Source of the DNA: Dehalococcoidia bacterium UBA5620
Lineage (GTDB): Bacteria; Chloroflexota; Dehalococcoidia; GIF9; UBA5629
DNA: 64,000 nucleotides
Assembly: GCA_002423605.1 (NCBI GenBank)
Contig: DIKK01000022.1
Coordinates: 34,882-98,881, forward strand
Reading direction: 5' to 3'
Below, in pieces: positions 622 through 25,645 of the stretch. Under the pieces are notes generated by a model. The model made no database searches. It had not been told where the DNA came from and saw only the letters and a program-made list of their open reading frames with translations. Every line of letters starts with the position of its first letter. The first letter of the stretch is position 1. The translations under genes were made by a program, and so were the position numbers.

Positions 622-652
622 TTAAAAATATAACAGTTATTATTGTATAATA
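622..652 (+). promoter_or_regulatory. Candidate sigma70-type promoter with extended -10 (TGTATAAT) for the MTase-HNH operon
   Basis: TGnTATAAT at 644-651 and a weak -35 TTAAAA about 17 nt upstream. The start codon at 667 follows a GAGGAG RBS. Confidence 0.4.
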
Positions 653-666
653 CGAGGAGAACAAAT

Positions 667-1581: not shown

Positions 1582-1583
1582 TT

Positions 1584-2318
1584 ATGAATAATCAAGATTT
1601 ACCCGAAGACTTTATCAGGAAATTGAAAGCCGTTACAAACAAACGTCCACGGACAGTAATCGACCATATATTGAAAAATGGATATATCACCACTGAGGAG
1701 CTCAAAACACTATATGGCTATCAACACCCCCCACGTGCAGCACGTGATGTACGTGAAGAAGGCATTCCTTTAGAAACATTCCGCGTTACAGATAGTTCAG
1801 GCCGATCTATAGGTGCTTATCGTTTTGCCAATATCTCTGAAGCACGTTTTGGTCGTCTGGGTGGTAGGAAGATATTCCCAAAAGATTTCAAGACCGGTCT
1901 TATTAAGTTGTTAGGATGCAAATGTTCCATATGCTTGGATGATTATGAAGATCGTTATTTGCAAGTTGATCATAGAGTTCCATATGAGGTTACAGGTGAC
2001 GATAAATCTTTAGAGCGAGATTATAATGGTTATATGCTATTATGCGGCTCTTGTAATCGAGCAAAATCATGGTCTTGTGAACATTGTGTTAATTGGTCCA
2101 AAAATAAGAAACCCGATATATGCGGAGACTGTTATTGGGCACAACCAGACTCATATAAACATATAGCTATGCGTGAAATAAGGAGACTCGATATTGTATG
2201 GCATGAAGAAGAGGTTGCCGATTATGAGGAGTTGAAGAGACAGTCTGATTCTGTTATGACGAACATTCCCGATTTTGTCAAAGCTGTTCTAAAAAAGCAC
2301 ATTAGACGAATCCCTTGA
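1584..2318 (+). CDS. HNH endonuclease, candidate cognate restriction enzyme of the upstream MTase
   Basis: ATG lies 2 nt after the MTase stop, suggesting translational coupling. Zn-finger/HNH core: CKCSICLDD...QVDHRVPY...CGSCNRAK...CEHC. Confidence 0.65.
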   Translation: MNNQDLPEDFIRKLKAVTNKRPRTVIDHILKNGYITTEELKTLYGYQHPPRAARDVREEGIPLETFRVTDSSGRSIGAYRFANISEARFGRLGGRKIFPKDFKTGLIKLLGCKCSICLDDYEDRYLQVDHRVPYEVTGDDKSLERDYNGYMLLCGSCNRAKSWSCEHCVNWSKNKKPDICGDCYWAQPDSYKHIAMREIRRLDIVWHEEEVADYEELKRQSDSVMTNIPDFVKAVLKKHIRRIP

Positions 2319-2878: not shown

Positions 2879-3457
2879 ATGAGTGCAAGTATTATTGCGG
2901 CCATAGTAGTTATTATTGCCATTGAGTGTTACTACATAATATCGGAGATTAGGCTTGCCGCCCGCACTACACGGGGAACGGACAATACCCTTGATAAGGG
3001 AACGAGGCGACTTGTCTGGAGGCTTAGTGCAATCTCTTACAATATGGCGTGGATCCCCGTAATATTTGACTTCGGCCGCCTGATTATTCTGGGTGGCTGG
3101 CTAACATGGGTGGGCGTAGCTATCATGATTTTTGGTATTGTATTCCGGCAATATGCTATTTCTACCCTGGGGAAGTTCTTTACAGCAACAATACAGATTA
3201 AAAATGACCACGAATTAATCCAGACCGGCCCCTACCGCTATATCCGGCATCCGTCATACCTGGGAATACTCATCATGACCTTGGGTTTAGGAATTGCCCT
3301 AGCCAACTGGATTTCCCTGATACTATGTATAGTGCTTCCTACCATCGGCTTGATGCAGCGCATCAAGTTTGAGGAGAAGGAATTGGAACAGCACTTTGGT
3401 AACCAATACCAGGACTACAGGAAAAACACTTGGCGTGTTATCCCGTACATATATTAA
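2879..3457 (+). CDS. Isoprenylcysteine carboxyl methyltransferase (ICMT/PEMT) family membrane protein
   Basis: Multi-TM protein. C-terminal signature TGPYRYIRHPSYLGILI...EEKELEQHFG. Confidence 0.75.
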   Translation: MSASIIAAIVVIIAIECYYIISEIRLAARTTRGTDNTLDKGTRRLVWRLSAISYNMAWIPVIFDFGRLIILGGWLTWVGVAIMIFGIVFRQYAISTLGKFFTATIQIKNDHELIQTGPYRYIRHPSYLGILIMTLGLGIALANWISLILCIVLPTIGLMQRIKFEEKELEQHFGNQYQDYRKNTWRVIPYIY

Positions 3458-3514
3458 ATCGGGCTTATATATTGGACACAGGCCAGATGGAAGATGGGGA
3501 GGCACTACATCCCT

Positions 3515-3566
3515 CCTTTGACGCTTTCCCTGCCGCTTCCCGGCGGTGGTACTAACTGTGGCGACC
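3515..3566. repeat. R2 repeat copy: a highly degraded integrase 3'-end/att scar
   Basis: cctttgacgctttccctgccgcttcccggcggtggtactaactgtggcga. About 80% identical to the 3' tail of the integrase remnants (ttgacgctcccctgccgctcc...ccccgacggcagcac). Further copies at 4597-4648 and 8014-8065. Confidence 0.5.
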
Positions 3567-3652
3567 TGTCCCCTTAATCTACAGGCTGACATGGAAGCTG
3601 GACTGATTTTAGGGGGGCGGGTCAGGCTAGTACTACACGGGATGATGTGACT

Positions 3653-3817
3653 GTGTCTAGAAGTGACTTCAGCGAGAGCATGTGGTTTACATTTACCGAG
3701 ACCCAGGAGTTCTTGGATGTCAGACATCAGACTATATATAAGCTCATGGAATCGGGCTTGCCATCTCACAAGATAGGCAAGAAGCGGGTCTTTCTAAAGG
3801 ACGACCTGGTAGAATAG
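3653..3817 (+). CDS. Divergent excisionase-like HTH protein (GTG start 3653, or ATG 3680)
   Basis: ...MWFTFTETQEFLDVRHQTIYKLMESGLPSHKIGKKRVFLKDDLVE. Same fold signature (LPSH+IG+K+VFLK+D) as the 57-aa paralogs. Sits directly downstream of an R2 copy. Confidence 0.55.
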   Translation: MSRSDFSESMWFTFTETQEFLDVRHQTIYKLMESGLPSHKIGKKRVFLKDDLVE

Positions 3818-3917
3818 ATTAAAGAACACTAACCGAATTTAACTCCTAAACACTTAAGCTCTGTCATACTAAGGTTGCGATAGCGCTGTAATACTTTGTT
3901 ATGCCGCGACTCATTAC

Positions 3918-4334
3918 TTATTTAGTTAAGTGGTAGCCTTCATCAGTCAGTGCTTTTCTAGCAGCGTTTCTTTGGCCAAGAGAGGCTCCATTATTTCTGG
4001 CGAATATGAGCACCTTGTCGAGTATTGCCCTAATTCCAGCCTTATCATTGCGATCAGGTAATGTCCAAGAGGAGGAAGCACCGTCTTGGAATTCGATATG
4101 AAGCTGATTGTTATGAATCTGAGAGGTCATTCTTTGTTTGGCGATTGACCTACCACGTCCTGTTGAGGTTCGATAAGAACTTCCTCCGTCTCCAGTGAGC
4201 GTTTGAATTCCCTCATACGTCGAATTCGGAGGCAATTCAAATACACGTCTAAGAACGTCATCCTCAGTCTCTCCAAATTTACCACGACCTGCGATAGCTT
4301 GCCAGACTTCTTCAGATATTTTAATAGTACGCAT
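3918..4334 (-). CDS. Hypothetical protein, island cargo
   Basis: 138-aa ORF MRTIKISEEVWQAIAGRGKFGETEDDVLRRVFELPP.... No motif I can assign. Confidence 0.45.
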   Translation of the reverse strand: MRTIKISEEVWQAIAGRGKFGETEDDVLRRVFELPPNSTYEGIQTLTGDGGSSYRTSTGRGRSIAKQRMTSQIHNNQLHIEFQDGASSSWTLPDRNDKAGIRAILDKVLIFARNNGASLGQRNAARKALTDEGYHLTK

Positions 4335-4596
4335 AAGTAACTCCTTAATAAGTATTACTTCTTATATTATCACTACTTCTTATAGAAGTCAAGCGCCTTT
4401 TAAGATAAGTAAATCGGAATGTCCTATTTACAGGTAAGTTTTCCTACGTGTCGTTTGGTTGGGGGTGACTTCTATTGAATTAACTATTTAATAGCGAGGA
4501 TTGTATTTGAAATGATGACATGACGATGCAAGGGCACCAGCTTATACTGAGAGCACACATTATTAGGCCAACCTCATCTCAGCGGGTTCTCATCTC

Positions 4597-4728: not shown

Positions 4729-4766
4729 GTTACGAAACCGCTGCTCTACCACTGAGCTACGCTGGC
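4729..4766 (-). other. tRNA 5'-half-like fragment (acceptor strand, D arm and anticodon loop; reads as Thr-CGU-like). Not an intact tRNA.
   Basis: Minus strand GCCAGCG TA GCTC AGTGGTA GAGC A GCGGT TTCGTAA, then no complementary anticodon-stem 3' strand, no T arm and no acceptor 3' strand. Lies 12 nt downstream of the integrase-remnant stop. Confidence 0.55.
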
Positions 4767-4781
4767 GCTCACGATGCAGGG

Positions 4782-4967
4782 TTAAAGTTTTGACGCTCCC
4801 CTGACGCTCCGGGCTACCCCCGACGGCAGCACTTCATCAAGTAACGCCATGGCATCTTCCTGCATGCCAGATATTATATGTGAATATGTATCCATGGTAA
4901 AGGCTACGCTGGCATGTCCCAGAGCCTCAGAAATCACCTTGGGCTTGGCTCCCACATGGAGTCCCAA
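4782..4967 (-). pseudogene. Tyrosine recombinase (phage-integrase family) C-terminal remnant
   Basis: ...KPKVISEALGHASVAFTMDTYSHIISGMQEDAMALLDEVLPSGVARSVRGASKL*. Carries the catalytic-Tyr box. Only about 60 aa; the upstream part is non-coding. Confidence 0.75.
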
Positions 4968-5250
4968 GTAATGGGAAACTATGCAGACCCGTCAGACCCT
5001 GCAGGTATGAATTTATAATCCTGGTGTGTGATGCAGCCCATTATTATTTTATTGCTATTGTCGCCATGTTTGAGACCCGGTGGGGGTCGCAGGAATCATC
5101 CGCATCCGTGGCATTATTGGAATACTGGATGCAGTCTGTGTGTGTTGCGGCCTGCTGTTTGAGCGTCAGCCGAGCGTCCGTGTATTTGGTCGTCAGGATG
5201 GACAGCGGGTTGGGAGACCGCCGTCCACTATACATCTCAATGCCCAGATT
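4968..5250. repeat. R3 conserved non-coding block, copy 1 of 2
   Basis: About 85% identical over ~250 nt to 11160-11400 (cagcccattatt.ttttattgc...ccatgtttgagacccggtgggggt.gcagga...). No convincing protein in any frame. Confidence 0.5.
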
Positions 5251-6201: not shown

Positions 6202-6468
6202 AATTGATAATCCGCTTCAGCACCTGACCTGCTTCCCAATACTCATACCATCTCTTAAGTCACTCCCACAAGCACTTAGGCATGCCAATAAACTGATTGG
6301 CATGCCCCCCGTGCTAGCTATAACATGCAGGGAAGGATCCGGGTTTGTTATTTAACCTATCATTGTTTATGCCGTTATCTCCAATGTTTTAGACCCACCC
6401 CCATATCTCCCATCTTCCCCTTCATCTTAGCTTTCCAATTTCCCCTGGATGGTTTACGATTTTCAGCA

Positions 6469-6651
6469 ATGGATAAACGCACTGGGCGTATCTTCTACAC
6501 GTTCAAAGAGGCTATGAATCATCTGGCGGTTAGCAGGTACACGTTGCGCAAGCTGATGAAGTCAGGGCTACCAAGCCACAGGATAGGTAGAAAGATCGTG
6601 TTCCTGAAAGAAGACGTGGCCGACTGGATAAAAAGGCAGAGCCCTCAGTAA
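6469..6651 (+). CDS. Excisionase-like HTH protein, paralog 2 (60 aa)
   Basis: MDKRTGRIFYTFKEAMNHLAVSRYTLRKLMKSGLPSHRIGRKIVFLKEDVADWIKRQSPQ. Same leader as paralog 1. Confidence 0.7.
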   Translation: MDKRTGRIFYTFKEAMNHLAVSRYTLRKLMKSGLPSHRIGRKIVFLKEDVADWIKRQSPQ

Positions 6652-6772: not shown

Positions 6773-7933
6773 TTATTCGAACTTAAAGCCCTTATTCTTG
6801 AAAACTATCAAACAGGCATCCACTACATCGGCGTCGTAGAGTCTACCTCTGTTTTGTGAAATCTCCTCCAGTGCCTTATCTATGCCTAGCGCTGGGCGGT
6901 AAGGACGGTGAGAAGACATGGCCTCAACCACATCGGCAACAGCCAAGATTCTAGCCTCTAGGGAAATGTCTTCTCCAGAAAGACCGTTAGGATAGCCAGA
7001 ACCATTCAGCTTTTCATGGTGTTGGAGTATCGCCTGGGCAACTGGCCAAGGGAAATTTACCCCTTTCAGTATATCATGAGCGACTTGTGGATGAGTCTGA
7101 ATAATACCGAGTTCATGATTGCCTAACTTACCAGGTTTGCTCAAAATTTCGGATGGCACAGCTACTTTCCCAATGTCGTGGATGAGCCCTATAATACGTA
7201 TTCCCTCAATCTGGTCTTCTGAAAGACCCACCTCAGTGGCAATAGCACAAGAGAGCCGAGCTACTCGCTTTTGGTGAGATGCAGTATAGGGATCCCTGCT
7301 CTCACATAGGATTATTATGGAGTTAACGGTTTCACTAAACGTCACTCGTGAACTATCGAAATCTTGTAGAATTCCTGTTTCCCGTTTTGTTAGCCCTACT
7401 ACAGTAGCTGAGCGTCCTTCCATCTTGACAGAGAACTCAACCTTTCCATTAGTAATAACATTTCTGTCTTTGGCAGTAAAGAGCTTAATAGCTATATTAT
7501 CAGCCAGTTGCAGTTTATAAGTCTGTCCTTTATAAGCTTTGAACATCAGGAAAAACCATAGGAATAAGGTTAAGGCAATCACAATCCAGTACAAGACGAC
7601 TAGGAACCAATAGAGAGTATCATTGGCGATTTTAACTAAGCTCAGAACTATAATCGGCACGGTGAGTATTCCAAAGGTTACAATTGATTGACGAGCGTGG
7701 AAGCGAACGAAGCTATCTTCTCTCTTTATAATTAGCAGAATTATTCCAGATATCCAGCCAAGTGAATAGCAGAGAAGTCCAGCAATATTAGGTCGCAGGT
7801 AGGTAACAGCAGTTATATACCATACTCTTGTCTTACAGATCGCCACTTTACTGTTACGGTAAAGCTCTTTAATGTAATCGACTGCCTTTGTAACTATAAC
7901 GTTCACTGAATATCGCATCTCTCTAATTTGCAT
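6773..7933 (-). CDS. Membrane-anchored HD-GYP domain protein (predicted c-di-GMP phosphodiesterase)
   Basis: N-terminal TM helices. HD domain HDIGKVAVP ... HHEKLNGSGYP (HD-GYP signature). Confidence 0.75.
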   Translation of the reverse strand: MQIREMRYSVNVIVTKAVDYIKELYRNSKVAICKTRVWYITAVTYLRPNIAGLLCYSLGWISGIILLIIKREDSFVRFHARQSIVTFGILTVPIIVLSLVKIANDTLYWFLVVLYWIVIALTLFLWFFLMFKAYKGQTYKLQLADNIAIKLFTAKDRNVITNGKVEFSVKMEGRSATVVGLTKRETGILQDFDSSRVTFSETVNSIIILCESRDPYTASHQKRVARLSCAIATEVGLSEDQIEGIRIIGLIHDIGKVAVPSEILSKPGKLGNHELGIIQTHPQVAHDILKGVNFPWPVAQAILQHHEKLNGSGYPNGLSGEDISLEARILAVADVVEAMSSHRPYRPALGIDKALEEISQNRGRLYDADVVDACLIVFKNKGFKFE

Positions 7934-8147: not shown

Positions 8148-8184
8148 TTACGAAACCGCTGCTCTACCACTGAGCTACGCTGGC
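8148..8184 (-). other. tRNA 5'-half-like fragment, copy 2
   Basis: Identical core to copy 1: GCCAGCGTAGCTCAGTGGTAGAGCAGCGGTTTCGTAA. Confidence 0.55.
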
Positions 8185-8199
8185 CCGCACGATGCGGGG

Positions 8200-8385
8200 T
8201 TAAAGTTTTGACGCTCCCCTGCCGCTCCGAGCTACCCCCGACGGCAGCACCTCATCAAGCAACGCCATGGCATCTTCCTGCAGCCCCGATATTATATGCG
8301 AGTAGACATCCATTGTAAAAGCTACGCTAGAATGTCCTAGGGCTTCTGAAATGACTTTAGGCTTTGCCCTACGCATCAAGGTCAC
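8200..8385 (-). pseudogene. Tyrosine recombinase C-terminal remnant
   Basis: MTLMRRAKPKVISEALGHSSVAFTMDVYSHIISGLQEDAMALLDEVLPSGVARSGRGASKL*. Confidence 0.75.
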
Positions 8386-8442
8386 TAGCGAAGATGTACC
8401 GTGGGTCGTGACTTATGCTCTCTAGGCTTGCCCGTCAGAGTG

Positions 8443-10665
8443 TCATTGACCATTTGATTCTGCAGTTCCTCTACTATAGCCTTCTTCTGCTAGCTTCTCC
8501 ATGATGCGGGCGGCTCTAGGGTAGCCGATACGTAGACGGCGCTGCAAAAAGGAACTTGAGATGTTTTTATGTTCTTGGGCTAACTGTCTGGCAGCTTCCA
8601 GCATTGCGTCTTCGCCGTTTTTTTCGGTTGAAGCAAGTTCACTCATCTCCTCGAATCTGAGTGGTTTCATCTCGGGTCTTTTTTGATTACCCCAGAACGA
8701 TACTATCCTCTCTATTTCAGCATCGGAGATAAAAGTCCCCTGAAGACGTTTTGGTTTGCTGGCATCTGTGGGCATATAAAGCATATCGCCTCTGCCCAGC
8801 AGCTTTTCAGCTCCAGCAGCATCAAGGATGGTTCTTGAGTCCACCTGTGAAGTGAGCGCAAAACTTATACGTGTTGGGAAGTTAGCTTTGATGAGACCGG
8901 TGACCACGTCGACAGACGGACGCTGGGTCGCTACGACCATATGGATACCGGTAGCCCGGGCTAGTTGAGCTAAACGGCAAAGAGTATGCTCCACCTCGTC
9001 GAAAGCTGCCATCATCAGGTCAGCTAGCTCGTCGATAACCACCACTATATAGGGCATTGTGTCTCCGTAATGTCGATTTGTGTTGTAGCTATCGATGTTA
9101 CGTGCGCCGGCCCGGGCGAACTTGTTATAGCGGTTGTCCATCTCCTGGTTAAGCCAACGTAACGCCAGGATTGCTTTATCAGAATCTACAACCACAGGAG
9201 CTGCCAGATGAGGCAGGCTATTAAAATTAACCAGCTCCACGCGTTTTGGATCAATCATAATGCACTGGACATCATCGGGGGTATTGTGGATAAGAAGGCA
9301 GCAGATGATCGAGTTGAGACAGGCGGTCTTACCACTGCCGGTGGCTCCAGCAATAAGCAGATGGGGCATTCTATCCAGATAGCCAGCTACTGTTTCTCCT
9401 CCAGCTCCCTTGCCCAAAGCCAGAGCCAGTTTTGATTTGGCATGCGCTTTTTGAAAGGCGGAGCTCTCAATTACGCCCCGCAGATTGACCAAACTAAAGG
9501 TAGTATTTGGTACCTCGATGCCTACCACTGATTTTCCTGGCACTGGAGCTTCGATTCTGATGCTTGGCGCAGCCAGTGCCAGAGCTAGGTCGTTAGCCAG
9601 GGCGCTAATACGGTCAACTTTAACTCTAGTTTTTGACACCTCCTCCAGGCGGGTTATATCATTGCCAAATTCATCGCGCTCTCGGATTTTTTTGTATTTG
9701 CGGTCCCATCCAGGCTCGACTCCGAACTGGGTTACGGTAGGGCCGACATTGATCTGGACTACTTTAGCCTCAACGCCGTAGCTGTTTATAGCTTCTTCGA
9801 TGAGCTGTGCACGCTTCTCAACATCACTCTGGTTTAGCTCTATTTCCGTGGGCTTATTCAGGATATTTACCGGGGGTAAGCACCAGCCACCGGTGGTAAA
9901 TATCGATTGGTATTTTCTTGGCTCCCATGACTCGGGAGCAGGTACTTTGCGTGTTGGTGGAGGGGTGACAAAAGGAGGTTCTGTGTTGGTCTGTTTTTCC
10001 TCGGGAACGTGCATCTCTGTTTTTAGAGGCGTGACACTAATGACTTCTGTAACCAGCTGTATTTCCCTGGGAGCTAGGGCTGCCAGTGCTGCTGCGGGTA
10101 TGATACTAAGGGCTTGCATAACTACCTGTATTTCCTTTGGGGAAGGCACTGCCGGTATTGCTGGGGGTATGATGCTAATGGCTTGTGAAACAGGTTGTTC
10201 TTCCTCGATAGCAGGTGCTTCGGCTGCAGGTTGAGGCGTGGCGATGATGTCTTGCATAGCTGGTTGCTCTTCCTCAGGAGCAGGCACTTCGTCTGTTGTT
10301 GGAGATGCACTACTGCGGGCTTGTGAAACAGGTTGTTCTTCCTCGGTAGCAGGTACTTCAGCTGCAGGTTGAGGCGTGATACTAGGGGTCTGCGTAACTG
10401 GCTGATTTTCCTCGACATTGGAAAGTCCGAAGAATTTTGTTACCGGGTCAGGTTTGGCTTTAGGCGGCCGATGGCCGGTGACACTTTGCGGTGTTGGTGT
10501 AGTTGATGGTCTGGTTGGTTGTGGCTTGTGAGGTTTCTGCTGCTGTTGTTCCGCTCGATGCTTGTTCCCAAAAAGTAAGCCACAACTCGGGCAGCGACCA
10601 GATGCCTTATTTGTCTTGATACCACATCGCGGGCAATCGTTAAGGTGGTTTGTAGCGTTGTCCAT
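8443..10665 (-). CDS. ftsK: FtsK/SpoIIIE-family DNA translocase with an N-terminal C4 zinc ribbon, no TM domain, and a long Pro/Glu-rich repeat linker
   Basis: CPRCG...CPSCG at the N-terminus. Walker A GATGSGKT, Walker B VVVIDELADL. C-terminal gamma-like winged helix (SSFLQRRLRIGYPRAARIMEKLAEEGY). Confidence 0.85.
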   Translation of the reverse strand: MDNATNHLNDCPRCGIKTNKASGRCPSCGLLFGNKHRAEQQQQKPHKPQPTRPSTTPTPQSVTGHRPPKAKPDPVTKFFGLSNVEENQPVTQTPSITPQPAAEVPATEEEQPVSQARSSASPTTDEVPAPEEEQPAMQDIIATPQPAAEAPAIEEEQPVSQAISIIPPAIPAVPSPKEIQVVMQALSIIPAAALAALAPREIQLVTEVISVTPLKTEMHVPEEKQTNTEPPFVTPPPTRKVPAPESWEPRKYQSIFTTGGWCLPPVNILNKPTEIELNQSDVEKRAQLIEEAINSYGVEAKVVQINVGPTVTQFGVEPGWDRKYKKIRERDEFGNDITRLEEVSKTRVKVDRISALANDLALALAAPSIRIEAPVPGKSVVGIEVPNTTFSLVNLRGVIESSAFQKAHAKSKLALALGKGAGGETVAGYLDRMPHLLIAGATGSGKTACLNSIICCLLIHNTPDDVQCIMIDPKRVELVNFNSLPHLAAPVVVDSDKAILALRWLNQEMDNRYNKFARAGARNIDSYNTNRHYGDTMPYIVVVIDELADLMMAAFDEVEHTLCRLAQLARATGIHMVVATQRPSVDVVTGLIKANFPTRISFALTSQVDSRTILDAAGAEKLLGRGDMLYMPTDASKPKRLQGTFISDAEIERIVSFWGNQKRPEMKPLRFEEMSELASTEKNGEDAMLEAARQLAQEHKNISSSFLQRRLRIGYPRAARIMEKLAEEGYSRGTAESNGQ
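10060..10420. repeat. Roughly 141-bp tandem DNA repeat, about 2.5 copies, encoding the FtsK linker repeats
   Basis: gcttgtgaaacaggttgttcttcctcg.tagcaggt.cttc.gctgcaggttgaggcgtg recurs at about 10178 and about 10319. Confidence 0.6.
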
Positions 10666-10907: not shown

Positions 10908-10942
10908 CGCGAACCGCTGCTCTACCACTGAGCTACGCTGGC
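10908..10942 (-). other. tRNA 5'-half-like fragment, copy 3 (ends in the anticodon-loop region)
   Basis: GCCAGCGTAGCTCAGTGGTAGAGCAGCGGTTCG, then divergent. Confidence 0.5.
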
Positions 10943-10957
10943 ATGCACGATGCGGGG

Positions 10958-11179
10958 TTAAAGTTTTGACGCTCCCCTGCCGCTCCAGTCTACCCCCGGC
11001 GGCAGCACCTCATCAAGGAGCGAAATTGCATCTTCCTGCATCCCCGATATTATATGCGAATAGGTGTCCATGGTAAAGGCTACGCTGGCATGTCCCGGAG
11101 CCTCGGAAATGACCCTGGGCTTTGCTCCCACATGGAGTCCCAAGTAATGGGAAACTATGTAGACCCTGCAGGTATGCAT
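10958..11179 (-). pseudogene. Tyrosine recombinase C-terminal remnant
   Basis: ...IVSHYLGLHVGAKPRVISEAPGHASVAFTMDTYSHIISGMQEDAISLLDEVLPPGVDWSGRGASKL*. Confidence 0.7.
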
Positions 11180-11400
11180 CTATGCTCCGGGTTTGTGTTT
11201 CAGCCCATTATTGTTTTATTGCCATGTTTGAGACCCGGTGGGGGTAGCAGGAAACATCCTCACCTATGGCATTATTTGAATACTGGACGCGGTCTGTCGG
11301 TGTGTGTGTTGCGACCTGCTGTCCGAGCGTCAACCGAGCGTCAGGATATGTGGCTGTCAGGATAGACAGCGGATCAGCAGACCGCCGCTCAATATGCTGA
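11160..11400. repeat. R3 conserved non-coding block, copy 2
   Basis: See 4968-5250. Confidence 0.5.
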
Positions 11401-11786: not shown

Positions 11787-13127
11787 ATGACGTTGAAACC
11801 TAGAGGACTGTTCGTAAAAAAGCAAGAAGCACCACTTCAACAGATTGCGGAACTTCCTATCCGTGAAGGTCTCCTGAATTATTTCGATGATCTTCCTATT
11901 GGCATAAATACCGTGGATATCCTGGGCAATTTTACCTATGTTAACAAGAGATTTCTGGAAGTATCAGGTTATTCCAAAGAGGAAGTTATTGGAAAGAACG
12001 GGTTAAAAATTGGCTTGTTTCCCCCAGATAGCTTAAAACGCTTAGCCAAAAGGATGCGGGCTAGGTTATCTGGAAAACCCTCGCAATATTTGGAGCTTCA
12101 GTTCAAATGCAAGGATGGCAGGTTGATCTGGGTAGAGCTTGAAGCTAGGTTGCTCAAAAATCATGGTTTTCCAATCGGCTTTCAAATTACTTCAAGGGAC
12201 ATCACCTATCGTAAGCAAGCTGAGGAGATGCTTGCCGACGAAGCGAACCGATGGCGTATGCTAATGCAACAGTCCAGAGACGGGATAGTTATCATCGATG
12301 AGGACGGCAAGGTGCATGAGGCAAACCAGCGTTTTGCCGAGATGCTCGGATATTCTCCCGATGAAGTCAGCCAGCTATACTTATGGGATTGGGATACTCA
12401 ATATACACGTGAGCAACTGCTCGAGATGGTGCGGACTGTTAGCGAGGCGGGCGACCATTTCGAGACATACCACCGTCGTAAGGACGGTACTACTATTGAT
12501 GTTGAAATCAGCAGCAATGGGGCTATGTTTGCAGGACATAAACTGATTTTCTGCGTGTGTCGTGATATAAGCGAACGCAAGAAGGCAGACGAGGCTATAA
12601 AGAGAGTTAATAAGCAGTTAATGGAATCGTCCAACCATGATATTATGACCGGCTTGCCAAATAGAAGGTTATTATATGAACATTTTGACATAGCACTGGC
12701 GAGTGCACAGCGAAACAAGAAAATACTGGCAACAATATCCCTCGATCTTGACAAATTCAAGGCTATAAATGACGCATTTGGTCATGACGTAGGAGATAAG
12801 CTATTAGTTGCCGCTGCAGACCGGATGACCAGCATTTTACGTAAGACTGATACAGTTGCCCGCATGGGCGGAGATGAATTTGTTGTGCTTTTATGGGATC
12901 TTGACCATAAAAGCACAACAGTTAAAGTTGCACAAAAAATATTAGAGGGGTTCCGACAACCGTTCAGTGTTGATGGTCACACGCTTAATAATACTGTCAG
13001 TGTGGGCGTCGCAATATATCCGGAAAATGGCAGTAACATCGAAGAATTGCTGAAGAGTTCCGATAAATCACTGTATCGAGTAAAAGAAAGTGGCAGGAAT
13101 AATTATCAATTGTCTGCTAGCAGCTAA
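11787..13127 (+). CDS. PAS-PAS-GGDEF diguanylate cyclase
   Basis: Two PAS blocks followed by GGDEF (RMGGDEFVVLL). The last ~450 nt are about 90% identical, in inverted orientation, to the 3' end of the 15469-18423 gene. Confidence 0.85.
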   Translation: MTLKPRGLFVKKQEAPLQQIAELPIREGLLNYFDDLPIGINTVDILGNFTYVNKRFLEVSGYSKEEVIGKNGLKIGLFPPDSLKRLAKRMRARLSGKPSQYLELQFKCKDGRLIWVELEARLLKNHGFPIGFQITSRDITYRKQAEEMLADEANRWRMLMQQSRDGIVIIDEDGKVHEANQRFAEMLGYSPDEVSQLYLWDWDTQYTREQLLEMVRTVSEAGDHFETYHRRKDGTTIDVEISSNGAMFAGHKLIFCVCRDISERKKADEAIKRVNKQLMESSNHDIMTGLPNRRLLYEHFDIALASAQRNKKILATISLDLDKFKAINDAFGHDVGDKLLVAAADRMTSILRKTDTVARMGGDEFVVLLWDLDHKSTTVKVAQKILEGFRQPFSVDGHTLNNTVSVGVAIYPENGSNIEELLKSSDKSLYRVKESGRNNYQLSASS

Positions 13128-13350
13128 TTCCGTAATTAAACGCAAAAGTAATCCCTTCTGCCATATCCGAGCAGATAACCTGTTTTACGCAGCGCTAGCT
13201 GGCTGTAACATGCATAGCTAAATCCGTGTTTGTCATTTGACCTGTCGTTCTTTATGCCGCCATCTCCCACGTTTTAGACCCCTGTATACCCCACCTTGCT
13301 ATTCATCTCAGCTTTCCAAATTTCCCCCGGATGGTTTACGATTTTCAGCA

Positions 13351-13523
13351 ATGGACAAGCGCACCGAACGGATCTTCTACACGTTCACAGAAGCTATGAA
13401 TCATTTGGCAGTCAGCAGGTACACGCTGCGCAAGCTGATGAAGTCAGGGCTACCGAGCCACAGATAGGTATAAAGATCGTGTTCCTTAAGGACGATGTGG
13501 CTGAGTGGATAAAGAGGCACTAG
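13351..13523 (+). pseudogene. Excisionase-like HTH gene, paralog 3, disrupted
   Basis: MDKRTERIFYTFTEAMNHLAVSRYTLRKLMKSGLPSHR* (TAG), then out of frame IGIKIVFLKDDVAEWIKRH. Confidence 0.6.
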
Positions 13524-13591
13524 ATTTTGTCACTGAAGGCTGGAGGCGAGCAGAGCAGTGATACTCCCTGAGTCGATGATTAAGATATAGT

Positions 13592-13879
13592 TTATGGGCG
13601 GTAAGTAGTCTCGGTACGGCGGGTTATCTGGATTATAAGCACCAACTTCTGAGAATCGTACACTTCGTAGACAACTCTGTAGTTGCCGGCTCTTATTCTA
13701 TAGGCTGCCTCGGCGCCTTTGATTTTTCTGACGCCATGGGGACGTGGTTCAACGGCTAAGGCTACAATGGAGAAGCTTAGACGCTCGAAATCGTGGAGTC
13801 GTATTCGGCCTTTCAGTTTTTGTAGGTCACGATCAGCGGCAGGTGATACTTCGATGCGGTACGCTTTTGGCTTGTTCAT
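13592..13879 (-). CDS. RelE/ParE-family toxin
   Basis: 95 aa, YRIEVSPAADRDLQKL...YRIRAGNYRVVYEV. Immediately downstream of a small RHH-like gene. Confidence 0.7.
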   Translation of the reverse strand: MNKPKAYRIEVSPAADRDLQKLKGRIRLHDFERLSFSIVALAVEPRPHGVRKIKGAEAAYRIRAGNYRVVYEVYDSQKLVLIIQITRRTETTYRP

Positions 13880-13887
13880 TGGCTGAA

Positions 13888-14148
13888 TTACGTTTTGCTT
13901 TCACGTTTGGTCAGCGCCTCTGTCATCTCCCTCTCTACCTCAGCCCAGGGACGACCACCTTTTTCCTCCCATTCAGCTCGGGCAGCATCGATTACAGGCA
14001 ATAGCTCAGCATCCTCCCTGTTTTCCAGCCACTCAAGTACAGCTTCACTGACTATATCGCTGGCAGGCTTGCGCCGCCTCACGGCCTCTACTTTCAGATT
14101 GGTGTAGAGGTCATCATCGTGAAAGACTACGGTCATTCTTCTGCTCAT
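13888..14148 (-). CDS. RHH/CopG-type antitoxin (start taken at MSRRM; the track ORF is longer)
   Basis: MTVVFHDDDLYTNLKVEAVRRRKPASDIVSEAVLEWLE. Confidence 0.55.
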   Translation of the reverse strand: MSRRMTVVFHDDDLYTNLKVEAVRRRKPASDIVSEAVLEWLENREDAELLPVIDAARAEWEEKGGRPWAEVEREMTEALTKRESKT

Positions 14149-14232
14149 CGGTATCCTCCATTCAAGCGTATAGGCATAAAAGCATACACGTGCATGTATT
14201 GTATCAATAGATGTTTTGGCAGTCAACTTCTA

Positions 14233-14502
14233 TCAGTCATATGTAGGTGGACTCGCCTCCTCCTTTGACATTTCCATGCCGCTCCGGGCCACCCCCGACG
14301 GCAGCACCTCATCTAATAGCGCCATGGCATCTTCCTGCATGCTATGATAGACGTCCATCGTAAAGGCAACGGAGGCATGCCTCAGGGCCTCGGAAATCAC
14401 CTTGGGCATTGATACCGAAGTGCGTGTTATAGATTTACGATACGATAACATTATGGGAATAGCCCATAATGTACTTGACAAAATATATAGTGTGCTGTAC
14501 AC
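14233..14502 (-). pseudogene. Tyrosine recombinase C-terminal remnant (diverged 3' tail, no adjacent tRNA-like piece)
   Basis: ...MPKVISEALRHASVAFTMDVYHSMQEDAMALLDEVLPSGVARSG.... Confidence 0.6.
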
Positions 14503-14534
14503 TTAGCATACGATACTATACAGGAGGCATCGGA

Positions 14535-14915
14535 ATGAAAATAAGTAGATATCGTATTTACAAGGCGATCATAGGAGGTGGGCTGGGTGCTGCTGTGGGA
14601 ATTGCGGTTGCTACTGACACCGCCATAATTGCGCTGGTGGCGGTTGTTGTAGCTATTGTAATTGCGGTTATTCTGGAACGTAGAAACAAGGAGATAGTTC
14701 GGGATGAGCGAATCTTGCAGATCGGCAGGAAAGCTACTTCTACCTCTTTCTATGGCATGCTTATTCTGGCGGGAGTCGCCTCATTGGGCACCGCCCTTTT
14801 CCGCAACCAGTTGCCGGAGAGTGTTGTTTTTGCTGGTTCTATCATGGGCTATTTTGTCTGTGTTGCATTAATACTATATATGTGTTTGTACGCCTATTTC
14901 AGCCGGAAGCTATAG
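14535..14915 (+). CDS. DUF2178-like small membrane protein
   Basis: MKISRYRIYKAIIGGGLGAAVGIAVAT..., three or four TM helices. Abuts an XRE regulator, the usual pairing for this family. Confidence 0.55.
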   Translation: MKISRYRIYKAIIGGGLGAAVGIAVATDTAIIALVAVVVAIVIAVILERRNKEIVRDERILQIGRKATSTSFYGMLILAGVASLGTALFRNQLPESVVFAGSIMGYFVCVALILYMCLYAYFSRKL

Positions 14916-14916
14916 G

Positions 14917-15162
14917 GTGCGACAGATGAAAAACAGGCTAAAGGTATTTCGTGCCATGCATGACCTCACACAGGAGGCGCTGGCCGATCAATTGCGCGTG
15001 ACCAGGCAGACGGTCGTTTCCATCGAAAATGGTAAATACGATCCTTCCCTGCCGCTTGCTTTTCGTATCGCCAATCTTTTTAATGTAAAAATTGAGGACG
15101 TCTTTTTATACGAAGGTGAACCGGGTGAATTTCATGGCTATCCACCCATGTCTAAGAAGTAG
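14917..15162 (+). CDS. XRE-family HTH transcriptional regulator
   Basis: LTQEALADQLRVTRQTVVSIENGKYDPSLPLAFRIANLF. Confidence 0.8.
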   Translation: MRQMKNRLKVFRAMHDLTQEALADQLRVTRQTVVSIENGKYDPSLPLAFRIANLFNVKIEDVFLYEGEPGEFHGYPPMSKK

Positions 15163-15227
15163 CGCCTATTTATATAGGGATACCATCTGCGCAGTTGTTA
15201 AAAGCCGTGCCAGGTGCAGAATCGATG

Positions 15228-15245
15228 CCACTGAGCTACGCTGGC
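15228..15245 (-). other. Truncated tRNA-like fragment (acceptor 5' strand plus start of D arm only)
   Basis: GCCAGCGTAGCTCAGTGG, then unrelated sequence. Confidence 0.4.
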
Positions 15246-15260
15246 ACGCACGATGCGTGG

Positions 15261-15420
15261 TTAAAGATTTGACGCTCCCCCTGCCGCTCCGTGCTACCCC
15301 CGACGGCAGCATCTCATCAAGGAGCGACATCGCATCTTCCTGCATGCTATGAGTAGACGTCCATTGTAAAAGCAGCTGAGCTATGTCCTAGCGCCTCCGA
15401 TATTACTTTAGGCTTTGCGT
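15261..15420 (-). pseudogene. Tyrosine recombinase C-terminal remnant, copy 5
   Basis: Complement encodes ...KPKVISEALGHSSAAFTMDVYSHSMQEDAMSLLDEM...; below the ORF-track size cutoff. Confidence 0.55.
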
Positions 15421-15468
15421 CTCTTAATGGCATATGACTGGCAAAGGTATTCTTAGGCTCTTTGATAA

Positions 15469-18423
15469 CTAGCAAGACTTATGTTTGGTGGGCTTTGTAT
15501 CTTGAGGTGGCGGGTTAAGGTTGCTGTAAGAGGAGAATTTATAGTTATCCCGGCCACTTTCCTTCACTCGATACATTGATTCATCGGAGCCCTTCAATAA
15601 ATCTCTAATGTCTTTGCCATCTTCCGGATATATTGCTATGCCCAAACTGATAGTGTTGTTAAGTGTATGACCATCGATAAGAAATGGTCGCCGAAATTCC
15701 TCTACTATCTTTTTTGCGACTTTGACCGCATCCTCCTTGTGGTCAACATCCCATAAAAGCAAAGCAAACTCATCTCCGCCCATCCGGGCAACTGTATCAA
15801 CCTTACGTAGAATGCTGGTCAGCCGGTCTGCAGCGGCAACTAATAGCTTATCTCCTACGTCATGACCAAGTGCGTCATTTATAGCCTTGAATTTGTCCAG
15901 ATCGAGGGACATTATTGCCAGCCTTTTCTTGTTTCGCTGTGCGCTTGCCAGTGCTATATCAAATCGGTCATATAATAACCTTCTATTAGGCAAGCCCGTA
16001 AGGGCATCATGGGTGACCAATTCTATTAACTCGTTACGGGCTTTTTCCAGACCTTTTTCTATCTCCTTGCGCTCGGTGATGTCCCTGGCTATACCGATGA
16101 CCGCTATAACCTTACCGTTGACATCTTTCACTGGGCTAAGGCTGGTGCTAGTCCACATACTTTTGCCACCGAGAAGCAGAGCCTCCTCTTTTTTAATATT
16201 CATTCCAGTTTCGAATACCTCCTGGATATTTTTTGACGTACTGGCAGCGATTTCGCTTGGGAATATTTCAGTAAGTGACTTACTGACCATATCTTCCGGC
16301 TTCTTGTGGAAAAGTCCGGCAGCGAAGATATTCATGGACAAAATTTTCATTTCACTATCGACCATAAATATTTGGTCAGATGCGGCTTCAATAATAGCCC
16401 TATATTTTGCTTCGCTTTCTTCTAGCTTCTCCCTCGCCTGCTTGCGCTCAGTGATGTCCCAGAAGATACCTATTAGGCCAGTGATATTGCCTTCTTCATC
16501 TCTGACGGGCACCTTAGTTGTGTGAACCCAGCTTTCTCTTTCGTCCTGTGTATACTCCTCTTCAATTTCTTCTATTCTGCCGGTTTCGATAATCTTTTTA
16601 TCGTCTTGCACATATTTTTCTGCCAATCCCTTGGGGTAGAAATCATAATCTGTCTTTCCAGCGATTTCTTCAGCTTTAATATTTAAAGCTCTAGCGTAAT
16701 TCTCACTGCAGGAAATATAAACTGAATTCTTATCTTTGAAAAATATCTTTTGGGGAAGATTCTGAAGAAGCATTCGATGCTTTTCCTCGCTCTGCCGCAG
16801 TGCTTCATCCGCCTTCTTGCGCTCGGTGATGTTTTCAAACACGACCACAAAATGGTCTCTTCGCGGACTATATATCGATATGGAAAGCCATATTCCCAGG
16901 GCATTAAAATAGGACTCAAAACTCTCTGGTATCCCGGTAGAAGCTACCCTACCATAGATTTCAAGGAATAGAGGGTCAGACTCTCTTATACCCGGAATAA
17001 CTTCGGATACCTTTTTCCCGGCAACATCCATCAAACCTGTTAGCTTTTCAAAAGCATCATTGACATCAAGATAGATAAAGTCTACGGGCTTATTTTCTTC
17101 GTCAACCAGTATCTTACAGAAGGCATACCCGTTGAGCATATTCTCAAACAAGGAGCGGTATTTCTCCCCTGATTCTCGTAATAACTCTTCTACCTGCTTG
17201 CGCTCAGTGATGTCAAGCAGCGTGCCAAACGTGAGCGTGGGTTTGCCGTCGACGTCATTGGATACAAAGCCAATGCTATGAACAAATCTAATGGCGCCAT
17301 CAGGCCTAACAACACGGTACGTAATATCGTGGGGTTTCGCTGCGTTTCCATCATATATATAAGTTTTGAATACGTCGGCACGATCATCTGGATGGACAAG
17401 ACTCTCCAGAATCTTCAGGTCAACCGGTGGCTTTTGGGATTGAATACCGAGGACGCGGCAGGCTCCATCAGACCAAGTTGTATAGCCACTTCTTAGGTCT
17501 TGACTCCAGAAGCCGAGATGTGCAGCCTGCTCGGCCAGCGTCTTATAAAGCTGTCCACTTTCCTGCGCCTTATCTTCGGCTTTAATACGGGATTCCGTAT
17601 ATAGGGATAGAATGTATCCGACTAAAGAGCCTGTGAAAATAAAAATAACTACTGAGATAAATTCATGAGCATCGCCAAATTGGAGTAAACTCTGAGGGAA
17701 TGTCTTATAAATAAAGATGCGATAAAAAATGTCTAATACATACCAAATCAGGATAGAACCAAGAAGTGATAAAATCATGATTTTCCCGTTTAAGCGGGAT
17801 TCCCTTTTTATTGCAAGGCCCAGCAATTGTCGAATGAATGGGACTTTCAGAATAGCTACATCAATGACTATATATAAATACATCAATGCCACACCTTTTG
17901 TTAACATCCCGGTTAGCACTGTTGCAGGTATTGATGTCTCAGCCTTTGGCTCCCAGAAAGGAGGATTAGACGAAAAGGCGACCGGATATAACAGGTAGCT
18001 GATACAGAAATATAGTAGTAAATAGGGGACGCTGATTAATAGGGGATTATTCCACAATGAAGGCCGCTTCTGCCTCAATTTTCCAAAATAACCCATCCAT
18101 GAAAACAATACAACATAGAGAATCGCCGTGACCAAATTGGCCCATCCGTTTGTTGGCCAAAGGATGAACGGGAAGAAGGCCCCCAATCCTACCACACCTG
18201 AAATTAAACCATATCTTCCACCGTATGCCATCCCTGCAAGAAGAGGGAACAGATAACTCCAAAGGATTGAAATAGAAAACGGTGGATTGTTGAATGACAA
18301 CGTGAATGAGGAGCATAAGAAACCTGCTAATCCAAGAATTATTGATATAACAAATTCTTTGGGTTTAAATAAACGCAGGTGAGAAGATTGCCGCTCGCCA
18401 ACCCTTTTGGTTTTACTGCCCAT
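15469..18423 (-). CDS. Membrane sensor diguanylate cyclase (multi-TM N-terminus, about four PAS, GGDEF)
   Basis: 984 aa with about 8 N-terminal TM helices, repeated PAS blocks and GGDEF (RMGGDEFALLL). Confidence 0.85.
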   Translation of the reverse strand: MGSKTKRVGERQSSHLRLFKPKEFVISIILGLAGFLCSSFTLSFNNPPFSISILWSYLFPLLAGMAYGGRYGLISGVVGLGAFFPFILWPTNGWANLVTAILYVVLFSWMGYFGKLRQKRPSLWNNPLLISVPYLLLYFCISYLLYPVAFSSNPPFWEPKAETSIPATVLTGMLTKGVALMYLYIVIDVAILKVPFIRQLLGLAIKRESRLNGKIMILSLLGSILIWYVLDIFYRIFIYKTFPQSLLQFGDAHEFISVVIFIFTGSLVGYILSLYTESRIKAEDKAQESGQLYKTLAEQAAHLGFWSQDLRSGYTTWSDGACRVLGIQSQKPPVDLKILESLVHPDDRADVFKTYIYDGNAAKPHDITYRVVRPDGAIRFVHSIGFVSNDVDGKPTLTFGTLLDITERKQVEELLRESGEKYRSLFENMLNGYAFCKILVDEENKPVDFIYLDVNDAFEKLTGLMDVAGKKVSEVIPGIRESDPLFLEIYGRVASTGIPESFESYFNALGIWLSISIYSPRRDHFVVVFENITERKKADEALRQSEEKHRMLLQNLPQKIFFKDKNSVYISCSENYARALNIKAEEIAGKTDYDFYPKGLAEKYVQDDKKIIETGRIEEIEEEYTQDERESWVHTTKVPVRDEEGNITGLIGIFWDITERKQAREKLEESEAKYRAIIEAASDQIFMVDSEMKILSMNIFAAGLFHKKPEDMVSKSLTEIFPSEIAASTSKNIQEVFETGMNIKKEEALLLGGKSMWTSTSLSPVKDVNGKVIAVIGIARDITERKEIEKGLEKARNELIELVTHDALTGLPNRRLLYDRFDIALASAQRNKKRLAIMSLDLDKFKAINDALGHDVGDKLLVAAADRLTSILRKVDTVARMGGDEFALLLWDVDHKEDAVKVAKKIVEEFRRPFLIDGHTLNNTISLGIAIYPEDGKDIRDLLKGSDESMYRVKESGRDNYKFSSYSNLNPPPQDTKPTKHKSC

Positions 18424-24364: not shown

Positions 24365-25645
24365 TTACGTGCCCGGGTTCAGGACGCGGCCGATGAACAG
24401 GACAGCGCCAGTCTGATTGTCACGGATGAGAAAGATAAATGGACGGTCGATAGTGACTGCTATAGGCGATGCCGGAGCAGAGGTCAATCTCATTATCACT
24501 GCGGTGGCAGCAGCTGCCTCGGTGCCTTCCTCGTCAACGGAGACAAACGCCTTATGGATCACGTCTGAGATATACAGGTCGCGCTTTCCGGTCATGCCCG
24601 AGAAATCAGCGCTACCTGTGAAGGCATCCACCATGCCCATAGCTGCCAGCGCTTCTTTAACGCTGAAGCCGGAGGTAAATTCAAACTTGGGCATGGTAAG
24701 TGCAATCTGCTTCGGAGATAATGCCTGGATAATATTGCTAGCTAGCTTTGCATCCAGGGCAAACGCTGAAAACTGGCCAGGCTGTGGCAGCAAGATGAGC
24801 ATAGAAAGCTCACGGCCGTCGTAGGGCAGCTCCACCGCTTGGTAACCATTGCCTTCTGTATATCTAAACGATTCGGTCTTACTCATCATGGGTACGGTGA
24901 TATCGTGCTCATCAAGCAGATGAAAACTGCCATCCTTGGTGGCATCCTTCTGAAAGGGGTATTGCCAGGCGGCATTGAAATAGATAGCGTTGGTCAGTAC
25001 CAGCCGGGTCAGGGTATCGATAGCGCCCTGCGGGATAAGGTCTTTTATCTTGCCCTCCGTCTGGTCGCTCACCCAGTTATTGATGGTGATGCGTGAAGGC
25101 TCCGGCGCTGTCATAAAATCGAGCGTTCTCAGCCCGGCGCCGTAGTTCAGTGCCAGGGCATCCAGAAACTCAGTGAGGAACTTATAGCCTTTCTGCCCCC
25201 AGATGGCGTTGACGATATTTAAGCGGAAGCCCTTCTCATCCTTGCCTTTGGCTCCCTGACCGCGCTGGCTTAGCTCCGTATCTAGGCCATTCATTGCCGG
25301 ATGCAGCCGATCCTGGGGTAGAGTGAAATGGAGCGTGTTCGCCATCTGCTGGGCAGTAGTGCCTCGGGCGCCGGCATAGGTCATGGCTAGCGCCACAGAG
25401 ATACTATATGGCGAATAAAACAGGTTATCCTCATCCTTGAGCGTATGGTACAGGTCAAAGGCAAAGGCATTGTTGCCCTCGACCAGCGCTGACAGGTCAG
25501 GTTGATTTACGACTGGAGAAGTCACACGTTGTTTATCTGATTTCAGTACCTCGCTTGATTGCAGCTGCGCAGGGACACAGGCTACAAGAGTTACTATCGC
25601 CGTAATCATCAATGTAATCGTATAAATCAAATTCTTCAATTTCAT
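24365..25645 (-). CDS. Serpin (serine protease inhibitor) with lipoprotein-type signal peptide
   Basis: Serpin core NAIYFNAAW..., C-terminal signature IDRPFIFLIRDNQTGAVLFIGRVLNP, signal plus lipobox LVAC. Confidence 0.85.
   Translation of the reverse strand: MKLKNLIYTITLMITAIVTLVACVPAQLQSSEVLKSDKQRVTSPVVNQPDLSALVEGNNAFAFDLYHTLKDEDNLFYSPYSISVALAMTYAGARGTTAQQMANTLHFTLPQDRLHPAMNGLDTELSQRGQGAKGKDEKGFRLNIVNAIWGQKGYKFLTEFLDALALNYGAGLRTLDFMTAPEPSRITINNWVSDQTEGKIKDLIPQGAIDTLTRLVLTNAIYFNAAWQYPFQKDATKDGSFHLLDEHDITVPMMSKTESFRYTEGNGYQAVELPYDGRELSMLILLPQPGQFSAFALDAKLASNIIQALSPKQIALTMPKFEFTSGFSVKEALAAMGMVDAFTGSADFSGMTGKRDLYISDVIHKAFVSVDEEGTEAAAATAVIMRLTSAPASPIAVTIDRPFIFLIRDNQTGAVLFIGRVLNPGT

Follow-up and report, generated by a model that had tools for sequence, protein, structure and literature searches.

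In a window of 64,000 nucleotides (nt) from Dehalococcoidia bacterium UBA5620 (assembly GCA_002423605.1, contig DIKK01000022.1, positions 34,882 to 98,881; "the window" denotes this whole stretch), two genes of the Pfam GGDEF family, A and B, converge, and their 3' ends form a long inverted repeat. We describe here what the repeat consists of, how it diverged, and how it relates to an array of decayed integrative elements at a tRNA-Thr gene.

11787..13127, plus strand: gene A, a 446-amino-acid (aa) PAS-PAS-GGDEF diguanylate cyclase (Pfam GGDEF E 2.7e-48, with PAS domains), cargo of the decayed element E4
15469..18423, minus strand: gene B, a 984-aa membrane sensor with a transmembrane part, four PAS domains and a GGDEF domain (Pfam)
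12616..13114, plus strand: left arm of the inverted repeat, the linker- and GGDEF-coding part of gene A (blastn)
15533..16031, minus strand: right arm of the inverted repeat, the linker- and GGDEF-coding part of gene B (blastn)
12651..12905, plus strand: low-divergence tract, a putative gene-conversion patch covering the I-site and the GGDEF active site; its counterpart in B lies at about 15742-15996

The inverted repeat is real and far above chance. Comparison of gene A with the reverse complement of gene B by blastn yields a single match of 500 nt at 82.8% identity with two gap openings (E 5e-147), which pairs 12616-13114 with 16031-15533 across a spacer of 2,418 nt. A repeat search splits the same homology in two, 347 nt at 84% and 204 nt at 76%, and self-comparison of the whole window finds no further copy of it. 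A preliminary description of this DNA had reported a near-identical repeat of ~450 bp and ~90% identity; the repeat exists where it was placed, but identity of that order, 91.4%, is confined to the central 255 nt.

The Pfam GGDEF domain (PF00990) occupies residues 282-439 of A and 804-959 of B, preceded in both by PAS domains, and scores 164.2 and 167.4 bits, respectively, against a curated cut-off of 23.8; A scores 153 bits with TIGR00254. Both translations hold an intact GGDEF motif with an RxxD I-site five residues upstream (RKTD-TVARM-GGDEF in A, RKVD-TVARM-GGDEF in B), and by these motifs A and B look like active, product-inhibited diguanylate cyclases. The proteins align without gaps from residue 254 of A and 775 of B through the last residue of A, and the two arms lie in the same codon register. 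Immediately 5' of this shared module, in the last PAS domain, identity drops to ~20% of amino acids and 39% of nucleotides with saturated synonymous divergence (dS), and the PAS sensors of A are unrelated to those of B. The 3' limit of homology is the stop codon of A, beyond which B continues for 17 more codons. The homology begins exactly at the domain linker, and no non-coding DNA is held in common. Given that the module aligns without gaps, that identity collapses upstream of it and that it stops at the end of A, the arm homology is that of one protein module, linker plus GGDEF. The inverted repeat is thus shown to be the output module, linker plus GGDEF, that two paralogous diguanylate cyclase genes of convergent orientation have in common, and it does not mark the edge of an element. 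In deriving the arms from the 3' ends of two GGDEF genes and in giving the bracketed segment a length of 2.4 kb, the preliminary description agrees with what Pfam, blastn and the measured spacer return.

Divergence along the module and among its relatives

Identity between A and B changes sharply along the module. Read in 45-nt steps it is 82-84% at 12636-12725, 89-98% at 12726-12905 and 62-80% beyond, and identity at third codon positions reaches 0.87-1.0 at 12726-12905. The 255-nt tract 12651-12905 holds 22 mismatches (91.4% identity), whereas the 258 nt outside it hold 75 (~71%), and in a two-breakpoint scan none of 500 shuffles of sites or codons reached this deficit of mismatches (p<=0.002). 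Synonymous divergence (Nei-Gojobori) follows the same course: dS is lowest, at 0.10, in the 180-nt core (12726-12905) and rises to 0.49 on its 5' side and to 1.13 on its 3' side. The longest perfect matches between the two genes are 47 nt and 27 nt.

Relatives were gathered by searches with full-length A and B and compared over an ungapped codon alignment of 513 nt, holding the DNA of five clade members together with A and B. The recovered clade consists of one GGDEF module joined to differing sensor parts: at 70-86% nucleotide identity, this single output module recurs in related organisms with several sensors. Because the clade joins it to PAS sensors of many kinds, the DNA homology is bounded by domain edges. 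The clade is lineage-specific and probably belongs to the Chloroflexota. By amino acid identity the module of B is closest to that of P0151 (82%), a homologue from another metagenome in which A and B are not recorded, followed by P0138 (80%), P0001 (78%), P0208 (76%) and A (72%). The best match of A's module is B, narrowly, with 72% of amino acids identical versus 70.5% for P0151. Over the whole module, nucleotide identity is higher between B and P0151 (86.4%, dS 0.36) than between A and B (81.1%, dS 0.46).

Divergence between A and B is 0.39 in the 5' part, 0.086 in the middle and 0.266 in the 3' part. Between A and the other four close members the corresponding values are 0.33-0.43, 0.16-0.23 and 0.26-0.31, and between B and P0151 they are 0.18, 0.11 and 0.16. 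The ratio of middle to 3' divergence is 0.32 for A and B, and 0.59-1.29 for the other 14 pairs. Likewise, in triplets, the sites at which A agrees with B and those at which it agrees with an outsider are balanced in the flanks (16:15, 25:26, 23:25), and in the tract A sides with B over the outsiders (23:4, 36:8, 39:5, 41:5). In neighbour-joining trees of the tract, bootstrap support is 94% for (A,B,P0151) and 71% for (A,B); in trees of the flanks both groups receive 0% and (B,P0151) receives 68%.

The tract of A shifts toward P0151 as well, with 16% divergence as opposed to 27-39% in the flanks, while the divergence between B and P0151 varies far less (11-18%). Given that A's tract nears P0151 while B and P0151 change far less, the direction of exchange would be from a B-like sequence into A. 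The tract is 8.6% diverged between A and B, about as much as B is from P0151 (11.4%), which argues that the exchange is not recent. The recent gene conversion proposed in the preliminary description is therefore borne out as to the signal of exchange (dS ~0.10 versus 0.5-1.1; bootstrap 94% versus 0%), but its recency does not hold at 8.6% divergence.

An array of elements at tRNA-Thr(CGU)

The DNA from the tRNA to position 15454 is shown to be a tandem array of ~20.7 kb that arose from repeated integration at tRNA-Thr(CGU). Five remnants of an integrase gene mark it, each given here with its nucleotide identity to the intact gene.

4730..5231, minus strand: E2 scar, integrase remnant with tRNA-Thr 5' half; 90.6%; tblastn E 2.5e-28; self-blastn match to 10912-11395
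8148..8410, minus strand: E3 scar, integrase remnant with tRNA-Thr 5' half; 83.0%; tblastn E 9e-29
10912..11395, minus strand: E4 scar, integrase remnant with tRNA-Thr 5' half; 89.9%; tblastn E 2e-24; left boundary of gene A's element
14263..14406, minus strand: E5 integrase 3' remnant lacking a tRNA fragment; 78.8%; residues 332-383, tblastn E 1e-17
15228..15454, minus strand: E6, the oldest scar, integrase 3' remnant at 15268-15454 with ~20 nt of the tRNA-Thr 5' end; 73.7%; residues 318-383, E 2e-19

The remnants have no Pfam match and their best PDB sequence match has an E of 1.4; they were identified through PHROGs and by tblastn with the intact integrase, in which all five match residues 318-383 or less. 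This family of remnants closes with a peptide that fits the box II pattern of tyrosine recombinases (…GHASVAFTMDTYSH…), after which come the first 20-38 nt of the tRNA. The tRNA 5' half is kept at about 4740-4790, 8150-8200 and 10912-10960, and a shorter piece at 15228-15258, so that in four of the five the retained piece of the tRNA is the 5' one, reaching at most to the anticodon loop, and not the usual 3' one. Since the remnants end in the tRNA 5' part, an intact integrase and tRNA were predicted to the left of them, and both were confirmed in the DNA there. On contig L060, whose coordinates equal window coordinates plus 8417, an intact 384-aa Phage_integrase lies at 3188-4342 and tRNA-Thr(cgt) at 3098-3172, both on the minus strand and with hisS next, which places them 5.3-4.1 kb left of window position 1. 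An Rfam scan of 1-19 kb gave no match at E<=1, the tRNA halves being too short to score, and ARAGORN found no tRNA inside the window and one just outside. A second repeat family, at 2500-2755, 6313-6638 and 13198-13525, is the element's excisionase-like HTH_17 gene.

Gene A sits between the integrase remnants at 10964-11143 and 14263-14406. The E6 remnant begins 15 nt past the stop codon of B. The GC content of B is 43.2% and that of A 43.7%, as against 50-55% from 19 kb onward. Because B has an A-like GC content and is abutted by an integrase remnant, its status as a backbone gene, assumed in the preliminary description, is doubtful, and B may be old cargo.

Origin of the low-divergence tract

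How did a tract so alike come to lie within two modules so diverged? We favour, with a probability of roughly 0.6, the reading that A and B are convergent paralogues sharing a GGDEF module, and that A carries an old, short, B-like conversion patch acquired within the tRNA-Thr element array. Integrative elements inserted successively at tRNA-Thr(CGU), each incoming element supplying a fresh tRNA 5' half. Gene A came in as cargo of element E4, and B stands where the array is oldest, at its far end; the order in which they arrived is inferred. Once the two were neighbours, a non-reciprocal exchange (ectopic gene conversion) may have written ~255 nt of B-like sequence into A, the donor being either B or an unsampled B-like paralogue. 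The patch would span the inhibitory I-site and the GGDEF active site and would have accrued ~9% divergence since. The exchange step, by which a B-like tract was copied into A, we infer from the pattern of divergence, and the best reading of the GGDEF module of A would be that of an old, basal clade member that received a B-like patch.

Several points weigh against this reading. In most pairs, too, no part of the domain is better conserved than the central tract, and support for (A,B) in the tract reaches just 71%. In free-breakpoint permutation tests the maximum chi-square gives p values that vary with the reference sequence (0.001, 0.027, 0.059 and 0.12) and are significant for two of the four; this two-breakpoint statistic was used in place of a 3SEQ-like "maximum rise", which was uninformative as its walk drifts upward overall. 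The clade is sampled by seven DNA sequences, and the source genome was read over 64 kb plus flanks, so that further B-like paralogues are possible and the donor and the number of events are uncertain. The check for inversion, given below, was made on assembled contigs.

Could the tract be merely slow? If A and B were old paralogues that never exchanged sequence, constraint on the I-site and active site might have held it back, and in most pairs the tract is indeed less diverged than the 3' flank, with ratios mostly of 0.7-0.95; the free-breakpoint tests, moreover, are non-significant against P0151 (p 0.12) and P0208 (p 0.059). Protein constraint, however, would not cut synonymous divergence elevenfold (dS 0.10 versus 1.13), the ratio of 0.32 for A and B is lower than in any of the 14 other pairs, and the tree topology differs between tract and flanks. 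We therefore regard constraint as a rather unlikely explanation that nonetheless keeps some weight. Very unlikely, in our estimate, is the duplication and capture put forward in the preliminary description, by which the island recently took up the 3' end of a backbone gene B to form the GGDEF end of A. That A is island cargo beside B and that B is the best single match to its domain (72% of amino acids) would fit such an event. The flanks, on the other hand, are ~71% identical and near saturation of dS in the 3' part; within them A lies at equal distance from B and from the homologues of other organisms; B is nearer to P0151 than to A; and the homology runs from the linker to the stop codon, beyond which A has sensors of its own and shares no non-coding DNA with B.

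A different suggestion is that the arms are a working inversion substrate, flipping the 2.4-kb segment, swapping the GGDEF ends and giving two forms of the genome. In principle this could happen: the longest perfect match measures 47 nt, the codon register is shared so that a crossover would leave both genes intact, and contig L005, the only one to end within an arm, stops 17 nt into the right arm. The assemblies speak otherwise. The locus is found in six metagenome assemblies (JGI 3300035454, 3300002220, 3300000558, 3300035640 and 3300035638; ENA ERZ27315071), and the ten contigs from them are 99.94-100% identical to the window and all collinear, with no second orientation of the segment seen among them. 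Contigs L005 (11443-15549), L004 (10204-14923) and L010 (14910-18558) together span the segment; several breaks fall at 13296-13627, in the HTH_17 repeat family and away from the arms, and the remaining contig ends lie at about 14910-14923, in the interval of the DUF2178 and XRE genes, and at 15549. A scan of metagenome contigs with the domain alignment of A and B returned eight loci, the source locus not among them, and no alternative orientations. There is no intact recombinase in or beside the segment, only C-terminal integrase remnants of 52-66 residues, the intact integrase being ~19 kb away. The arms are 17% diverged, a level at which strong suppression of homologous recombination is expected. 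At this divergence, and with no intact recombinase close by, frequent inversion between the arms is unlikely, and the arms as a working switch appear highly improbable. Nor do we give credence to the mosaic as an artefact of metagenome assemblers blending two paralogues: the source is indeed metagenome-derived and the arms share identical runs of 20-47 bases, but the same sequence recurs, at the identity stated, in six assemblies that stem from separate projects and assemblers, with contigs as long as 344 kb.

A broader proposal would join the array and the patch. If tRNA-Thr elements routinely bring genes of cyclic di-GMP (c-di-GMP) signalling (PAS-GGDEF, HD-GYP) and a resident cyclase core then overwrites that of the cargo cyclase, the swap of the catalytic and I-site core would fit an imported sensor to the existing output module of the host, a way of plugging in signalling genes by recombination, and the conserved "DITERK" junctions between domains, together with the linker, would be recurrent points of exchange. 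We consider this generalization improbable.

Ectopic gene conversion between bacterial paralogues is described for duplicated tuf genes and for rRNA operons. The conversion that we favour for A resembles it in its tract of raised identity within diverged paralogues, in the conflict between trees and in the closeness of the inverted copies. It differs in that the tract is old (~9%), covers part of a domain and brings no homogenisation, that the recipient is mobile cargo, and that the donor is uncertain. As in phase-variation switches and shufflons, inverted repeats flank a short segment that bears regulators; unlike in these, the recombinase is not intact, one orientation is observed, and the arms are 500 nt of diverged coding sequence in place of short recombination sites. 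The architecture of A and B is canonical, modular PAS-GGDEF, with an output module common to several sensors as its sole particularity. The whole locus is ordinary paralogue and mobile-element biology and would not surprise a specialist. Its practical value is mainly as a correction to the annotation: this repeat should be taken neither for the boundary of an island nor for a recent capture nor for a switch by inversion. It further offers a small example of mosaic evolution in multi-domain c-di-GMP genes, with its shared output module, its active-site patch and its two-part B, and an instance of c-di-GMP signalling genes travelling as cargo in an array where islands accrete at tRNA-Thr, in a lineage that is uncultured and probably belongs to the Chloroflexota.

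The closest published parallel to the array is found in Dehalococcoides, where tandem islands at ssrA were built by successive integrations and show direct target repeats, integration genes beside the repeats and much decay (McMurdie et al. 2011, PMC3146451). Common to both are accretion at one small-RNA gene, target repeats and decayed integration genes (PMC3146451). The target of the present array, however, is tRNA-Thr(CGU) rather than ssrA, where crossing over takes place close to the anticodon loop and the duplicated half is the 5' one; its integrase is a tyrosine recombinase, whereas the ssrA islands have the serine recombinase DsiB; and its cargo is c-di-GMP signalling, toxin-antitoxin and regulator genes instead of reductive dehalogenases.

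Neighbouring genes and related contigs

The spacer between the arms holds the following genes.

13198..13525, plus strand: decayed copy of the excisionase-like HTH_17 gene, with a truncated open reading frame at 13354-13467 (Pfam HTH_17; PHROG excisionase)
13592..13879, minus strand: ParE/RelE-family toxin (Pfam ParE_toxin E 1.4e-10, 42 bits versus a cut-off of 23)
13888..14226, minus strand: putative antitoxin, an open reading frame of 86-112 aa, 8 nt upstream of the toxin gene
14469..14915, plus strand: DUF2178 membrane protein (Pfam DUF2178 E 5.8e-10)
14917..15162, plus strand: XRE-family helix-turn-helix regulator (Pfam HTH_3 E 3e-14)

By self-blastn the decayed HTH_17 copy is 83-84% identical to 6313-6638 and 2501-2755, where the intact copies of the gene lie at 6469-6651 and 2580-2753. 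The placement of toxin and antitoxin is typical of a type II pair; the antitoxin has a weak match to RH3_dom (E 5.8e-4, 20.3 bits versus a cut-off of 27) and no NCBIfam match. Remnant element E4 accounts for gene A, the HTH_17 pseudogene and the ParE pair, and the next one, E5, for the DUF2178-XRE pair. The spacer is mobile-element debris and contains the RelE-family toxin and the DUF2178-XRE pair that the preliminary description listed, but the ribbon-helix-helix match is weak, there are two integrase remnants rather than one, and an HTH_17 pseudogene is added. Predicted promoters and terminators in the spacer were no more numerous than in shuffled sequence.

B itself has a history in two parts. 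Its 5' part (window 17194-18418, 1,225 nt) is 88% identical to positions 383-1607 of L059, a contig of a Logan assembly, and the C-terminal PAS-GGDEF half of the L059 protein has ~37% amino acid identity to B. The 5' and 3' halves of B therefore have different relatives, and B is itself a recombinant mosaic. At its C-terminus, B carries a tail of 17-19 residues (NLNPPPQDTKPTKHKSC; window 15469-15525) that A and P0151 lack; the tail, which ends 15 nt before the E6 remnant, may have been made by the deletion that truncated the adjoining integrase. At every PAS-PAS and PAS-GGDEF junction of B there is, moreover, a 22-nt motif encoding DITERKQ, with a period of 375-381 nt. These motifs are possible crossover points, used recurrently, for domain shuffling.

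16062-16083, 16437-16458, 16812-16833 and 17193-17214: copies of the DITERKQ motif in B, two of them identical
12195-12232 and 12554-12595: inverted copies of the DITERKQ motif in A

Contigs of other clade members show a similar association of genes. In L058 (7264-9236; GCA_042572845.1, a Chloroflexota metagenome-assembled genome) a truncated integrase, a 5' fragment 75% identical in amino acids to the integrase of the array, lies directly upstream of P0208 and overlaps its start; it gave no match in the window, because the L058 copy lacks the C-terminus to which the window remnants correspond. A gene of the HD-GYP family, encoding a c-di-GMP phosphodiesterase, is cargo of another remnant element of the array (window 6773-7933), and a similar gene stands beside a clade GGDEF gene in three contigs, L056 (49-2148, 6790-7050), L057 (1-759) and L049 (4201-5637). 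L049 also holds, beside another clade GGDEF gene, a copy of the XRE gene that is 88% identical in amino acids to that at 14917-15162. Sensor genes of this kind are thus generally mosaic and move together with the tRNA-Thr element family. Species-representative genomes searched with B gave no close orthologue or syntenic locus, the best match being from the Dehalococcoidia at 33% identity.

Elsewhere in the array, a full-length FtsK gene occupies window 8443-10665, with alpha, motor and gamma domains (NCBIfam FtsK E 7e-102 versus TraB 1e-16). It lies between two integrase/tRNA remnants in direct orientation and has a backbone-like GC content of 50%, and may be either the housekeeping gene or cargo of an element. 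A 69-nt tandem repeat in its linker (10032-10378) differs in copy number among metagenomes, the protein being 740 aa long in the window and 786 aa in JGI 3300000558 (L003). The newest element (window 643-2318, L060 5284-8819) encodes a Prim-Pol/AAA_25 primase-helicase, an Abi_C protein, a Dam-type methyltransferase and an HNH protein. A serpin gene of 426 aa (Pfam Serpin E 1.6e-121) is located at window 24365-25645, within the backbone part.

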